From: Verrucomicrobiales bacterium
GTDB lineage: Bacteria > Verrucomicrobiota > Verrucomicrobiia > Verrucomicrobiales > DEV007
Assembly: GCA_049594415.1 (NCBI GenBank)
Contig: JBMYJM010000010.1
Span: 41,641-105,640, forward strand
Direction of reading: 5' to 3'
Length of the DNA stretch: 64,000 nt
The notes below the pieces were generated by a model. It saw only the letters and a list, made by a program, of their open reading frames with translations, was not told where the DNA came from and made no database searches. The position numbers and the translations under genes were made by a program. Below are positions 1-5,853 of the stretch, piece after piece (the stretch's first letter is position 1; every line of letters begins with the position of its first letter).

Positions 1-726
1 GACAGAAAAGGTCTGGAAACGCCCCTGCACCGGTTGCAGATTGCGATTCAGCAGCATTTCGACCCGCGACTGAGTACCGGGAGCACTAAACTTCTGACCG
101 TTCTCAGTGACCAGGTAGGTTCGTGGAAAAAAGAAGAAGTGTGTTTTGCTGTAAAGATTCTCCTTCTTCAGAATCAGAATATCGTCCTGATCCACCACCC
201 AGTCGACGTGACTGCGACCATACCAGATCTTGTCCCAGAGCCGCTTGGGCAAACCGGGGCGTTCATAGCCCTCGGGAGCGTGTCTCTCCGACACCGGGTT
301 CATGTCCTCGGTCGGATAAGCAATAATCCCGTTCAAGGTCGGCTGCATTGAACCAGTCGGAATCTTGAACTGCTGGATAAAATAAGCACGAATGCCCATG
401 GCGATCACCACCGCCACGAACACTATCTCGATGTTTTCCTTCCAGGCCGAGGTCTTGTAGCCCTTGACCGACTTCTTACAGGTTTCAGTCAGGTCCTCTG
501 CCAGCTTCTCAAGATCCTTGCGCTTGGATGCACGATCCGTAAGCGCCTCGGAAAAAGCGCTGCGCTTATCGCCGATCTCCTCCTTGGTTTTATCCGTGAT
601 GAGATCATCGTTGTAGCGGAGGAATTTCTTTACGCCCTTAATGAGCGCCTTTCCTTCCTTTCGCCCTTTGCGATCCAGTGGCAGTTCGCCCAACTCTTCC
701 GCGCTTGGCTTCTTGAAAAAAAACAT
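1..726 (-). CDS. lepB: Signal peptidase I, N-terminal part (runs off the window edge)
   Basis: Not in the ORF track; translated by hand from ATG at 726: MFFFKKPSAEE...WKENIEIVFVAVVIAMGIRAYFIQQFKIPTGSMQPTLNG (TM helix plus catalytic Ser box). Directly downstream of lepA, the conserved lepA-lepB order. Confidence 0.92.
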   Translation of the reverse strand, partial: MFFFKKPSAEELGELPLDRKGRKEGKALIKGVKKFLRYNDDLITDKTKEEIGDKRSAFSEALTDRASKRKDLEKLAEDLTETCKKSVKGYKTSAWKENIEIVFVAVVIAMGIRAYFIQQFKIPTGSMQPTLNGIIAYPTEDMNPVSERHAPEGYERPGLPKRLWDKIWYGRSHVDWVVDQDDILILKKENLYSKTHFFFFPRTYLVTENGQKFSAPGTQSRVEMLLNRNLQPVQGRFQTFSV

Positions 727-2687: not shown

Positions 2688-3689
2688 TCAATACGGGATG
2701 CCCTCGTGAGTCAGGACCTTCGCAAGCGCTTTTTCCATGTCGTAGCGACACTGAGCCGTGGTCAGGTGAAGAAACCTATGAAGTTCGGCGTCCTCAACAT
2801 TCTGGTTCTCACACTTCTCGCTGTATTCCTCGAACGCTGTCAGGCTGCGAAGAATCGTGGCCAGATGGCGCGGGCACTCGCACTGTTGCGAGGGTGATAT
2901 TTTTGAGATTCGAACGAGGTCTTCGCCGGAAAACATGCGCGATGGAATGTCGCCCACGGCCTCAAGTTCAAAAACCTTGCCATCGGTCTCTGGCTCCGGA
3001 ATCGGCTGCGAAAGCGCGCCAAGGGCCAACTTGATCCCGGCCGCCTCGATTGGACCCCGCAGCGCAGTGATTTTGGTTCCGGACGTGGAATCGAGGACCC
3101 GGGACTCTGCAAAGCGATAAATCACAAAAGCTCGATCAGCCTCGACTTTGTCGGTCACAGCCTGAATCGCATTCAAATCTTCGAAAAAGAGGGTGTCCCT
3201 CTCCAAGACGATGATGTCCACGGCCCCGGCTTGGAAGGTGTCTTGGAGTTCTTCCAGTTTGTCGAATTCGCCGACAATGCGAAGGTCTGAGGCCCCGTCA
3301 GCTACCTCTCGGACACTTTGCTTGATCATTGAACCAATGAGACCAATTCGCTGTACAGTTTTTGACGAATGCGCGGCATTGGCCCCATTTGCCCCATTCG
3401 AGGCGATTGACTCTTCCAAACGCGCAACTCGTTCGACCAGTTGATCCATCGACAAATCGGCCACACTCCCAATCGCGTGCCCGTTGTCGACCAGGCGTTT
3501 CAGGAGGATTAAACGATCAACGTTCTCCTGGGTGTATTGGCGCCGCTTGCTGTCACTTCGCCTTGGTTCCACAACGCCATAGCGCCTTTCCCATACCCTC
3601 AGGACATGGGAAGAAAGACCCGTAATTCGGGCAACTGCGCTGATTTCATAGAACTGCTCTGTGGTCGGCATACGGCGTTTCTGATCCAT
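2688..3689 (-). CDS. MerR-family transcriptional regulator (CarH/LitR-like N-terminus, Cys/His-rich C-terminal domain)
   Basis: HTH ISAVARITGLSSHVLRVWERRYGVVEPRR..RRQY; C-terminal CECPRHL...FEEYSEKC...LH..LH. Start uncertain (TTG 3704, ATG 3689 or ATG 3671). Confidence 0.88.
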   Translation of the reverse strand: MDQKRRMPTTEQFYEISAVARITGLSSHVLRVWERRYGVVEPRRSDSKRRQYTQENVDRLILLKRLVDNGHAIGSVADLSMDQLVERVARLEESIASNGANGANAAHSSKTVQRIGLIGSMIKQSVREVADGASDLRIVGEFDKLEELQDTFQAGAVDIIVLERDTLFFEDLNAIQAVTDKVEADRAFVIYRFAESRVLDSTSGTKITALRGPIEAAGIKLALGALSQPIPEPETDGKVFELEAVGDIPSRMFSGEDLVRISKISPSQQCECPRHLATILRSLTAFEEYSEKCENQNVEDAELHRFLHLTTAQCRYDMEKALAKVLTHEGIPY

Positions 3690-3748
3690 AATAATACGTT
3701 TCAAATCGCTGTAGGAACCGGCGTGGCAATTTTTTCTGAAGTTTTTTC

Positions 3749-3783
3749 TTGTCTAATTACTGTTCATAGACAAACCTTTGACA
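3749..3783. promoter_or_regulatory. Putative operator between the MerR and ECF sigma genes
   Basis: Inverted repeat TTGTCTA-N11-TAGACAA (3749-3773). TnnACA boxes 11 bp apart on + (TAGACA 3767, TTGACA 3778) and on - (TGAACA 3766, TAGACA 3755). Confidence 0.5.
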
Positions 3784-3803
3784 TCAACACGAGCTATATC
3801 CCC

Positions 3804-4424
3804 ATGTCTAACCCAGATAAACTCCAGGAACGTCAGGCAGAAGCCGAACTAATGCGTCGAGTGGCCGAACGAGACCACGAAGCCTTTGCAGAGCTGTCGC
3901 AGAAATACTCCGCACTCATTTTTTCAACTGCCTTCAAAGTGCTCAACCACTACGAAGACACGGAGGACGTTATGAGCGAGGTGTTGAACACAATTTGGAA
4001 AAAAGCGGACACCTACCACTCCAAAAAAGGAAGCCTCGTCACATGGATTTGCACCACCGCCCGCAATCGAGCGATCGATCGGGTCCGAAGTGTGCAGCGC
4101 CGCAGCGCTCTCTATGACAAGTTCGAAACTAAGCTCGAAGGCGACAAGCCCGATGCTCGCACCACCGGCCGCGAAGACCTTTACCGTTCCGACGCACGCC
4201 AGGTTCTGCGTTCTGCTGTTGTAGCTCTTTCCCCCGACCAGCGCGAAGTCATCGAACTCGCCTACTTCGAAGGTTTGACCCAAAAGCAGATTGCCGAGCG
4301 CATCCACAGCCCGCTTGGGACTGTCAAAGCTCGCATCCGCCGCGGTGTCGAGCGTCTACGTGTCTCCATTAACGACCGCCTCAAGGGAGAAGGTCAACTA
4401 CTGCTCAACAGCGTTACCGACTGA
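3804..4424 (+). CDS. ECF sigma-70 factor (RpoE/SigK-like)
   Basis: Region 2 DTEDVMSEV..W..A..Y..KKGSLVTWICT.ARNRAIDR; region 4 QREVIELAYFEGLTQKQIAE....PLGTVKARIRRG. ATG 3804 preferred over the ORF-track start at 3537, which overlaps the MerR gene. Confidence 0.93.
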   Translation: MSNPDKLQERQAEAELMRRVAERDHEAFAELSQKYSALIFSTAFKVLNHYEDTEDVMSEVLNTIWKKADTYHSKKGSLVTWICTTARNRAIDRVRSVQRRSALYDKFETKLEGDKPDARTTGREDLYRSDARQVLRSAVVALSPDQREVIELAYFEGLTQKQIAERIHSPLGTVKARIRRGVERLRVSINDRLKGEGQLLLNSVTD

Positions 4425-5150
4425 TTCGGAGTTTCCTTCCCGGGTAAGAGCTGTAAGAACCCCATGCAACAGCTGGAGTTCCGGCTTATCCATTTTTGTC
4501 TTGGTAAACACGGACCGAAGCGTCCTGAGGCTGTGTGGCTTCATTTCAGGCGTTAGAAAAAATCCATTCCGGTCCAGCGCGTCTTCAAGCCGTGACAGAA
4601 AAACATCCACCTCCTCCCGGGTGGGTAGATTACCTTCAAAAGAGGCCGTTGGTAGATCGCCGAGCCTCCTCCACTCCCATCCGAAAAGCAGGACAGCCTG
4701 AGCCAGGTTCAAAGAACTGAAATCCGGATTCGTCGGGAAACGCAACAGGGTGTCCGCCCTCGCGATGGCGTCGTTGTCCAGCCCGGATGCCTCCGGTCCG
4801 AAAAGGATCGCCACCGTTTCATCCCCTGCGATCCCCTCTTCGGCCTCAACCACTGCGTCGGCTACATTGAGCTGTGGCACGTTGAGTGATCGATCCCTCG
4901 CCGTGGTGGCGAACACCCGTTGACAGTCGTTAAGCGCCTCGGCGAGCGTCCCAAACACCTCGGCTTCATTCAAAACAATATCGGCATCGGCCGCGGTCGC
5001 CTTGGCCGCTTTATTGGGCCACCCCTGCCTCGGATTCACCAGCCGCAGCCGCTGCAATCCACAGTTCAACATAGCACGGGCGCACATCCCGATGTTTTCA
5101 CCGAGTTGAGGTTCCACCAGAATAATAACGGGCTGCGAATTGATTGCCAT
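4398..5150 (-). CDS. trmJ: tRNA/rRNA SPOUT methyltransferase, TrmJ/LasT family
   Basis: VIILVEPQLGENIGMCARAM.NCGL..LRLVNP; ILFGPEASGLDN; SSLNLAQAV. Confidence 0.88.
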   Translation of the reverse strand: MAINSQPVIILVEPQLGENIGMCARAMLNCGLQRLRLVNPRQGWPNKAAKATAADADIVLNEAEVFGTLAEALNDCQRVFATTARDRSLNVPQLNVADAVVEAEEGIAGDETVAILFGPEASGLDNDAIARADTLLRFPTNPDFSSLNLAQAVLLFGWEWRRLGDLPTASFEGNLPTREEVDVFLSRLEDALDRNGFFLTPEMKPHSLRTLRSVFTKTKMDKPELQLLHGVLTALTREGNSESVGNAVEQ

Positions 5151-5176
5151 GAAGCTGTGTGCAAATATTGACGTCA

Positions 5177-5431
5177 ATGGACGTTCCTAAACAGATCACC
5201 TGCGTCGACTGCGGGCAACCTGCCTATCGCCTCACCTATCCCCCGGAAGAGGGGTGGGAAGTTGGTGACTATGTCGCCTATCGCTGCTCAGGATGCAACG
5301 ATCGCTGGGACCTAATCGTAAATGAAGAGGACGCTGCAAACCAAATGCCCACAGCTCCAACTATTGCTGATGAAGCCCGCCTTATCCTCGAGTCCCGTAT
5401 CGAGGAAATGCGGAAGAAAAATTCCGAATAA
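5177..5431 (+). CDS. Small putative zinc-ribbon protein
   Basis: MDVPKQITCVDCG...YRCSGCNDRW: two CxxC pairs and an acidic/helical tail. 8 nt upstream of the next same-strand gene. Confidence 0.7.
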   Translation: MDVPKQITCVDCGQPAYRLTYPPEEGWEVGDYVAYRCSGCNDRWDLIVNEEDAANQMPTAPTIADEARLILESRIEEMRKKNSE

Positions 5432-5439
5432 CCTGCCCC

Positions 5440-5853
5440 ATGCGCCGCGACAAGCACGTCCTCCTCTTCGATAGCGATTGCCCCATGTGCACGTTCCAGA
5501 GCCGAACCCTCGGTTGGCTCGACTGGTTCGGTTGTGTCGAAATGATTCCTCTCAAGGATACCCGCACGCAGAAAATCGCTCCTGACATCACTCGCGAAGA
5601 TCTCCTCGAAGCGATTCACTGCATCACTCCGGAGGGTGAAATCCATCGCGGCGCCCGCGCGATTCGCTTTCTCGGGATGCGGGTTCCTCTTCTGGTCCCG
5701 GTTGGCCTGTTTCTTTGGCTTCCCGGGATCATCTGGATCGCGGAGAAGGTCTACGCTTTCGTTTCACGCAACCGACACTTCTTCAGCAAGATCTTCGGCT
5801 GCAAAGGCGCCTGCGCCATTATGCCGGAGAAAGGCGAAAATCAGGGCTCCTGA
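5440..5853 (+). CDS. DCC-family (DUF393) thiol-disulfide oxidoreductase-like protein
   Basis: VLLFDSDCPMC (DxxCxxC), G.RAI..L, Y.FVSRNRH. Confidence 0.88.
   Translation: MRRDKHVLLFDSDCPMCTFQSRTLGWLDWFGCVEMIPLKDTRTQKIAPDITREDLLEAIHCITPEGEIHRGARAIRFLGMRVPLLVPVGLFLWLPGIIWIAEKVYAFVSRNRHFFSKIFGCKGACAIMPEKGENQGS

Follow-up and report, generated by a model that had tools for sequence, protein, structure and literature searches.

A probable B12-independent LitR/CarH-family regulator paired with an ECF sigma factor gene in Verrucomicrobiales

In a stretch of 64,000 nucleotides (nt) from a Verrucomicrobiales bacterium (GenBank assembly GCA_049594415.1, contig JBMYJM010000010.1, positions 41,641 to 105,640; hereafter the window), the gene for a MerR-type regulator, P0001 (2688..3689, minus strand), stands next to the gene for an extracytoplasmic function (ECF) sigma factor, P0002 (3804..4424, plus strand). 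Our analysis indicates that P0001 probably belongs to the B12-independent part of the LitR/CarH family and most likely corresponds, in Verrucomicrobia, to the class III LitR proteins of Burkholderia, with P0002 as its LitS-like partner. The concept of a B12-independent LitR that is associated with an ECF sigma factor is already known, and P0001 is an addition to it at the level of a phylum. An earlier reading of this DNA, made without database searches, had described P0001 as a CarH/LitR-like regulator with no B12 site that is paired with an ECF sigma factor, and had presented the pair as a candidate light/oxidative-stress switch in a bacterium of the Planctomycetes-Verrucomicrobia-Chlamydiae (PVC) group. 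The underlying observation was confirmed, as was the type of regulator and its pairing, but one part of a proposed Cys/His motif was not, and the pair is no novelty of the PVC bacteria.

The gene for P0001 was defined from its open reading frame (ORF) and translation. It encodes 333 residues when read from the ATG (alternative starts are a TTG at 3704 and M7 at 3671), and it is present as a single copy in its genome. Matches in Pfam, NCBIfam and PDB and an hhalign comparison place a CarH-type MerR winged helix-turn-helix (HTH), together with the long helix that follows it, at residues 12-100 (3390..3656, minus strand). Pfam recognizes MerR_1/MerR alone (residues 14-78; MerR_1 1.8e-16), and the CarH model of NCBIfam matches residues 12-73 only (4e-14, 52 bits against a cut-off of 400). 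A PDB sequence search with a profile of 31 homologues returned CarH (5c8d) as the top match at 9e-12, again over the HTH portion only. When the B12-less group was compared by hhalign with canonical Verrucomicrobial CarH, the similarity (probability 99.7, 47% identity) was confined to residues 11-95. These matches and the RxWExRY signature point to an N-terminal HTH of the CarH subtype, by which the LitR/CarH family is recognized. To judge from these comparisons, the B12-less type and canonical CarH have a common DNA-binding head, and their sensor halves are either unrelated or unrecognisably diverged.

As stated in the sequence-only reading, P0001 contains neither of the B12 motifs (W-x9-EH and DxHxxG), and its single Trp, W33, is located within the HTH; it has four Cys residues, at positions 270, 272, 293 and 314. 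The Pfam models B12-binding and B12-binding_2 had no match in any of the 31 homologues even at E<=10, and the same scan at E<=10 gave no match to Response_reg, zf-HC2 or RskA. The canonical CarH proteins encoded at the loci L100 and L003, both described below, served as a positive control: they match both B12 models, and both motifs are visible by eye in the ORFs of L100 and L003-L010. Membership in class I, the adenosylcobalamin-dependent CarH/LitR proteins, was rejected on these grounds, as P0001 has neither the PF02607 bundle with W-x9-EH nor the PF02310 domain with the His of E/DxHxxG, and its profile match ends at residue 95. For the latter reason, the middle domain cannot be named a decayed B12 domain on present evidence either.

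To describe the sensor half, an AlphaFold2 (AF2) model of P0001 was built on the 31-sequence alignment. The mean predicted local distance difference test (pLDDT) score of this model is 85. From the N-terminus it consists of the winged HTH with the long helix (residues 13-100), a β-α-β domain (113-223) and a helical C-terminal domain (255-328); the linker that precedes the β-α-β domain is of low confidence, and the one that follows it (227-241) is disordered. In a Foldseek search with the whole model, full-length CarH ranked first but superposed poorly because its domain order differs, and MerR HTHs and CheY-like/CpaE-type receiver domains came next. The middle domain (3021..3353, minus strand; pLDDT about 90, no Pfam match) is predicted to adopt a CheY-like (βα)5 receiver/flavodoxin fold, in line with the Rossmann/receiver-like middle that had been suggested earlier; receiver domains in 4dad, 3snk, 4myr and 3q7s were matched with target-normalised template modelling (TM) scores of 0.62-0.69. 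A true response-regulator receiver was rejected, as Response_reg does not match, no acidic pair follows β1 by inspection, and Glu163 occupies the place of the phospho-acceptor Asp. The domain is a pseudo-receiver at best, and almost none of its residues are kept across phyla.

The conserved part of the protein is its C-terminal domain (residues 249-331; 2697..2945, minus strand), a three-helix domain in the AF2 model with the signature C-E-C-P-x-H ... F-x-x-Y-x3-C ... D-x3-H. Residues 244-333 modelled in isolation (pLDDT 92.4, predicted TM score 0.83) form one short helix and two long antiparallel helices. Pfam has no match for this domain in P0001 or the 31 homologues, Foldseek found no significant fold relative in the PDB (best E 1.3) and no anti-sigma factor among the top matches, and a search for stand-alone proteins of 50-158 residues consisting of this domain found none. 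In an alignment of 18 sequences, which took in Verrucomicrobiota, Gamma- and Betaproteobacteria as well as the HTH-less forms described below, only ten columns of the whole protein are invariant, and all of them belong to this domain: C270, E271, C272, P273, H275, F286, Y289, C293, D300 and H304 (2778..2882, minus strand; codon positions checked). In the wider Verrucomicrobial set, H275 is replaced by Q in one homologue (P0032). The motif that had previously been read here as CECPRHL-x17-C-x10-H-x3-H is retained across phyla in its Cys/His core, but the gap to C293 is 16 residues rather than 17, and the terminal H-x3-H had to be given up, as H308 varies across the family (Y, G or R elsewhere). 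The pattern of conservation makes the invariant core a candidate cofactor, metal or chromophore site. The AF2 monomer has C270 and C272 ahead of the first long helix, C293 at the end of the same helix, and H304 in the early part of the second one, which puts the two pairs (C270/C272 and C293/H304) at opposite ends of a 22-residue helix; one joint site would therefore need to be assembled between subunits.

Five classes of LitR/CarH proteins have been distinguished, of which class III is found mainly in Burkholderia and has a C-terminus unlike any known domain (PMC9758184). The absorption of recombinant class III LitR changes with light (PMC9758184), and this class requires a chromophore other than B12 (PMC6739363). 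P0001 fits the description of class III as far as its sequence can tell, since it joins a LitR-type HTH to a C-terminal region with no recognised domain and no B12 domain, and the ECF sigma gene that corresponds to litS is found in the same cluster (window 3804-4424). A scan of genomes from named species detected full-length homologues with 28-38% identity in Proteobacteria, with Methylotetracoccus oryzae and Pseudoduganella flava among the named carriers. The carriers among gammaproteobacterial metagenome-assembled genomes (MAGs) belong to Chromatiales, Methylococcaceae and Ahniellaceae, and tblastn searches of plasmid and replicon records added copies in Burkholderia anthina, B. arboris, Caballeronia, Ralstonia and Methylomagnum. 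The Burkholderia, Caballeronia, Pseudoduganella and gammaproteobacterial homologues have Pfam matches to MerR_1/MerR only. P0001 and the B. anthina homologue align end-to-end (30% identity over 328 residues, 2e-37) and have the C-terminal signature in common, and P0002 is 32% identical (7e-31) to the sigma factor of the B. anthina cluster. In addition to this ECF sigma factor, the latter cluster encodes a cyclopropane-fatty-acid synthase (cfa), a chalcone-isomerase-like protein, a DUF2256 protein, GTP cyclohydrolase I (folE), a DUF3429 protein, a short-chain dehydrogenase/reductase (SDR), an FAD oxidoreductase, an α/β hydrolase, a DUF2878 protein and a photolyase. Downstream of the Caballeronia copy are folE and an SDR gene, with a sigma gene nearby and a photoactive-yellow-protein gene about 7 kb away. 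In two gammaproteobacterial MAG loci (L147, and L156 at 2953-4966), there is an overlap between the homologue and the 3' end of a RudS-type gene (2-thiouracil desulfurase plus DUF1722); upstream, the opposite strand has an FAD-oxidoreductase-like ORF (in L156) and additional ORFs. In B. multivorans, litR is reportedly located beside folE2, cfaA, litS, phrB2 and cryB; LitR is said to act as a repressor, and LitS to be required for part of the light regulon. Since Proteobacteria, Burkholderia among them, have this architecture too, and in the gene setting of the published class III LitR and LitS, the concept is not new and the type is no PVC speciality. On the strength of these alignments and gene settings, P0001 is most likely a distant class III-type member.

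Within its own phylum this type of regulator is widespread. A word-indexed search returned more than 1,800 full-length homologues of P0001, every named match being assigned to Verrucomicrobi*, and 453 representative clusters at 50% identity were obtained at E<=1e-30; with such numbers the conserved features are far beyond chance. A match was found in 98 of the 134 genomes of the window's GTDB family, and in 89 of these it includes the C-terminal domain. In a sample of 301 genomes from the phylum, matches outside this family were at the level of the HTH only. Eight of the phylum matches were fetched (L003-L010) and read as canonical CarH with W-x9-EH and xHxxG; L003, the only one of the eight that was scanned with Pfam, has both B12-binding_2 and B12-binding.

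The sigma factor P0002 has 206 residues, matches Sigma70_r2 and r4_2 in Pfam and TIGR02937 (3e-30), and is SigK/RpoE-like by a match to NF007228 (1e-40) that is below the cut-off. The start codons of P0001 and P0002 face each other over 114 nt; the sequence-only reading had placed an RpoE/SigK-like gene head-to-head at about 115 nt, and had proposed conservation of the pairing in relatives as a check. The pairing passes this check. Of the 29 loci from the genus, 28 have the divergent pair; the sigma factor is 77-96% identical there, and the regulator 45-53% in most cases and 84% in the closest one (L040). A further sample of 20 loci, drawn mostly from other genera of the GTDB family, has an orthologous ECF gene next to the regulator in 16 cases, and the gene orders in this sample are divergent, tandem with the ECF gene first, or with the regulator first. 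That adjacency is kept despite these different arrangements argues for a functional link rather than an inherited gene order. A SpoU-type methyltransferase gene is convergent with P0002, the 3' ends overlapping by 27 nt (window 4398-4424), which leaves the sigma factor without an adjacent anti-sigma gene, and a conventional anti-sigma gene beside the ECF gene was not conserved in any locus viewed. A deviating locus (L051, 3251-5447; genome G410) has two tandem B12-less regulators that are 35-37% identical to P0001, and no ECF gene was detected within its 10 kb.

The spacer between the two genes (3690..3803, 114 nt) contains conserved blocks in an alignment of 30 loci from the genus, in which CTTGTCTAA.T..TGTTCATAGACAA is conserved. 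On the basis of its uniqueness in the genome and its conservation, we predict an operator at 3749..3783, which consists of an inverted repeat and a set of boxes. The inverted repeat, TTGTCTA-N11-TAGACAA at 3749-3773, is perfect, and no other site with 0 mismatches exists in the 4.0-Mb genome. The same region can also be read as TnnACA boxes in an 11-bp phase, two of them on the minus strand (TGAACA at 3766-3761, TAGACA at 3755-3750) and two on the plus strand (TAGACA at 3767-3772, TTGACA at 3778-3783). Boxes 1-3 (minus TAGACA, minus TGAACA and plus TAGACA) fit the TnnACA consensus in 30/30, 29/30 and 26/30 loci, respectively, and box 4, which is TTGACA in the window, does so in 4/30 loci only. 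This second reading explains why the N11 'spacer' of the palindrome is conserved too. CarH operators are reported to be 11-bp direct repeats with a TnnACA core that is contacted by three DNA-binding domains. Upstream of the canonical CarH gene in L100 we observed TGTCTA repeats with an 11-bp spacing, and the half-sites TTGTCTA/TAGACAA recur with other spacings beside ECF or regulator genes in other genera. A further block, GGTTACGAA, near window position 3714-3722 and about 45 nt from the start codon of the regulator gene, is conserved in most loci of the genus, whereas the window and its nearest relative have a diverged form, ACGTTTCAA.

A link to carotenoid synthesis emerged from the loci of relatives. 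For the window itself, the earlier statement that no crt or phr genes are near the pair is correct; the C30 carotenoid cluster of this genome is located outside the window on contig C5 (91630-97851) and contains genes for crtN-like (513 residues) and crtP-like (506 residues) proteins, a glycosyltransferase and an acyltransferase, with a divergent aldH. In many relatives, by contrast, the pair is found in operons with crtN, aldH and crtP. In L094-L097, a crtN-like gene of the phytoene-desaturase family stands directly after the ECF gene and is co-directional with it; this second crtN-like gene is 48-50% identical to the main CrtN, lies between the ECF gene and trmJ in L095 and L097, and is absent from the window's genome. 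In L049, L050, L052 and L098, the regulator gene is followed by crtN-like, aldH and crtP-like genes and in some cases a glycosyltransferase gene, and in the short locus L099 by a crtN-like gene; the ECF, regulator and crtN genes are co-directional in L049, L050 and L099. A photolyase gene abuts crtN in L101. At L100 (2851-3888; genome G412, genus g165), a canonical CarH with MerR_1, B12-binding_2 and B12-binding is encoded between a divergent ECF gene, whose product is 50% identical to P0002, and a crtN-aldH-crtP-...-glycosyltransferase operon. Here the canonical B12-CarH fills the slot that is held elsewhere by the B12-less protein, a copy of which is also encoded in the G412 genome (L047). 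Among the 134 genomes of the family, 65 have both the regulator and crtN, 24 the regulator only, 16 crtN only and 29 neither, which corresponds to an odds ratio of 4.9, uncorrected for phylogeny. The association is genuine, though not exclusive, and the 24 genomes with the regulator but no crtN imply that the regulon does not consist of carotenoid genes only.

Two sets of elements were noted in crtN upstream regions. The crtN/aldH spacer on contig C5 contains an inverted repeat CCGTAAT-N4-ATTACGG and an element GTGAACC-N17-CGTAAT, the latter being kept with small changes in the six-genome subclade of the window. In L071-L093, an A-tract followed by GTCGACGAA-N14-AACGATGAATA is conserved in many species, and this element, possibly a promoter or a site for a different regulator, is absent from the window's subclade and from the regulator-ECF spacer.

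Not all homologues have the DNA-binding domain. In g150, g157, G413 and G415, the sole homologue is a protein of about 250 residues without the HTH, which consists of the receiver-like and the Cys/His C-terminal domains, and HTH-less homologues are listed as the sole family member for G361-363 as well. In genus g157 (L057, 4289-5750; L058, 4995-6446), the HTH-less gene follows the ECF gene at a distance of about 120 nt and in the same direction. A search at E<=1e-10 detected no further CarH-type HTH in the genomes with HTH-less forms. These forms imply that DNA binding cannot be the sole mode of action of the module, and it is chiefly because of them that direct regulation of the sigma factor stays in consideration, either as a rival or as an additional mechanism.

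On these data we propose the following mechanism. Sequence evidence strongly supports the view that the CarH-type HTH would bind the TnnACA-repeat operator at 3749-3783 as a dimer or higher oligomer. In the resting state, that is in the dark and without stress, bound P0001 would block transcription of the ECF gene and probably also that of its own gene. Synteny and the published behaviour of class III suggest that light or photo-oxidative stress may be sensed by the receiver-like domain together with the Cys/His C-terminal module. The invariant C-E-C-P-x-H...Y...C...D...H core could hold or form the chromophore or cofactor, and the signal would then lower the affinity for DNA. The ECF sigma factor would thereupon be made and would direct photoprotection genes, chiefly the C30 carotenoid cluster crtN-crtP-glycosyltransferase-acyltransferase and aldH.

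Several observations weigh against this proposal. We could not place sigma-70 -35 and -10 elements in the spacer with confidence, the crt promoter region of the same genome yielded no copy of the operator, and no crt or photolyase gene adjoins the pair there. A bipartite ECF-type motif common to crtN upstream regions and the regulator-ECF spacer was sought and not found: GTnnACnAA-N13-16-CGWW is present in 12 of 30 crtN upstream regions versus 0 of 30 regulator-ECF spacers, so that motif evidence supports neither autoregulation of the ECF gene nor its control of crt. To the same side belong the absence of crtN at E<=1e-60 from 24 of the 89 regulator-bearing genomes and the existence of HTH-less versions. 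Finally, it is by genus, architecture and gene context that the B. anthina protein would be orthologous to the LitR described for B. multivorans, and it is through this step that P0001 is connected with class III.

An alternative that we consider not very likely, but that deserves attention, retains the same regulator-ECF circuit, with P0001 not as a photoreceptor but as a sensor of oxidants such as singlet oxygen, peroxide or disulfide stress; the three invariant Cys and His would make up a thiol switch, or else a labile metal or Fe-S site, in the manner of SoxR, Rrf2-type regulators or the zinc-binding anti-sigma (ZAS) factors ChrR and RsrA. Three Cys and two His are among the residues that are invariant across phyla, and labile [2Fe-2S] or Zn sites are often ligated by three Cys with one His. 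In addition, the carotenoid regulons of M. xanthus CarQ/CarR and Rhodobacter RpoE/ChrR answer singlet oxygen and not photons, and 24 of the 89 genomes with the regulator lack crtN. The light-dependent spectral change of class III LitR in vitro (PMC9758184) speaks for a photoreceptor instead, as does the fact that the neighbours in Proteobacteria (photolyase, folE, cfa and a RudS-type desulfidase) are classic light-induced genes, and the position of C270/C272 and C293/H304 at opposite ends of a helix in the monomer model is unfavourable for a common site within one chain. A different possibility, quite unlikely in our estimation, is that the ECF protein itself is the target of the receiver-like and C-terminal module, which would work as a soluble anti-sigma or partner-switching factor, with the HTH adding transcriptional control or serving as a promoter tether. 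It draws on the sole HTH-less homologues of about 250 residues in g150, g157 and two others, on the g157 layout, in which the gene order is the standard sigma/anti-sigma arrangement, on the lack of another CarH-type HTH in these genomes, on the lack of a conserved conventional anti-sigma gene in any locus, and on the ECF protein being far more conserved than the regulator. Opposed to it is the absence of any likeness to anti-sigma domains in sequence (zf-HC2 and RskA at E<=10) or in fold (Foldseek). The Burkholderia model, moreover, is reportedly one of transcriptional repression.

We judge it highly improbable that P0001 is an ordinary metal-responsive MerR protein of the CueR, ZntR or CadR type that serves metal homeostasis next to an unrelated ECF gene. 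Such an assignment could appeal to the MerR HTH, to the conserved Cys and His residues and to weak matches of the CueR, ZntR and MerR equivalog models in NCBIfam, but these matches cover the HTH only and are far below the cut-offs, and the HTH groups with CarH. Metal sensors of the CueR/ZntR/SoxR kind have about 130-150 residues with a short C-terminal loop, whereas P0001, with 333 residues, has two extra domains in place of the short dimerisation helix and metal loop. The neighbours are ECF, crt, photolyase, folE and cfa genes and not transporter genes, and the ECF pairing is conserved across phyla. Our preferred reading of P0001 as a light-responsive, B12-independent LitR could be extended in one respect, which is speculative and on balance unlikely: the C-terminal domain of about 80 residues would be a hitherto undefined photosensory or redox cofactor domain common to Verrucomicrobia and Proteobacteria, perhaps with an inter-subunit site, and the module would in addition work without DNA binding as a soluble ECF regulator. 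If this were true, class III LitR would gain its missing chromophore site, and the module would be a cytoplasmic, light-gated factor of a new kind that resembles an anti-sigma factor.

Compared with known systems, P0001 is closest to class III LitR, with which it has in common the CarH-type HTH, the lack of B12 domains, the unrecognised C-terminal region and an ECF partner in a photoprotection cluster; the homologue from the B. cepacia complex also has the CECPxH...Y...C...D...H core. The differences are the phylum (Verrucomicrobiota versus Betaproteobacteria, with about 30% identity), the linked genes (C30 carotenoid genes here versus folE, cfa and phr), the TAGACA/TGAACA boxes of the operator in the P0001 system, and the HTH-less forms in sister genera. 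Class I CarH (Thermus thermophilus 5C8D/5C8E; Myxococcus) has the same HTH subfamily and occupies the same niche beside crt and ECF genes, but P0001 is devoid of the four-helix-bundle/Rossmann B12 module, and its domain order is HTH, α/β, helical versus HTH, helical, α/β in class I CarH. The 11-bp-phased TnnACA boxes are a further likeness, for class I CarH reportedly so. In the LitR-LitS system of Streptomyces coelicolor/griseus, a MerR-type light regulator acts through an ECF sigma factor on carotenoid genes (PMC11519972); the clustering of regulator, sigma and crt genes is alike, whereas LitR of Streptomyces belongs to class I and binds B12. Class II LitR (Pseudomonas PplR/PmlR) is a B12-independent repressor of light-induced genes with a short-LOV partner (PMC9758184). 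It resembles P0001 in its independence of B12 and in the occurrence of RudS/DUF1722-type neighbours, but class II proteins keep the B12-binding_2 bundle and receive the light signal from a separate LOV protein, whereas P0001 has no detectable bundle and no LOV gene adjoins the pair in the window. The ZAS factors ChrR and RsrA likewise tie a Cys/His module genetically to an ECF sigma factor in a photo-oxidative context; a ZAS or class I anti-sigma domain was nonetheless rejected for P0001, as HxxxCxxC is absent, zf-HC2 does not match, and the C-terminal domain has no fold match, its best Foldseek E being the 1.3 given above. PhyR-type proteins also have a receiver-fold domain, but they differ in that P0001 has no sigma-like domain.

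B12-independent LitR proteins (classes III-V) are already known, and it is their mode of light sensing to which the present findings are addressed. The Burkholderia-type architecture is widespread in marine and freshwater Verrucomicrobiales, where it replaces canonical B12-CarH in the ECF/carotenoid slot. The ten invariant residues in one small helical domain present a precise target for mutagenesis and spectroscopy directed at a chromophore or cofactor, the conserved and genome-unique predicted operator is a ready DNA probe, and the HTH-less forms beside a sigma gene raise a second mode of action that can be tested. For annotation, thousands of genes now named 'MerR family transcriptional regulator' could receive more precise names.

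As for the surroundings of the pair, lepA and lepB are located downstream of P0001 on the same strand. On the other side, the region at window 5159-5853 encodes a protein of 90 residues with two CxxC pairs (zinc-ribbon-like, with no Pfam match), followed by a DCC1-like thiol-disulfide oxidoreductase; judged by its N-terminal sequence, the DCC1-like ORF recurs in a sister species (L095).

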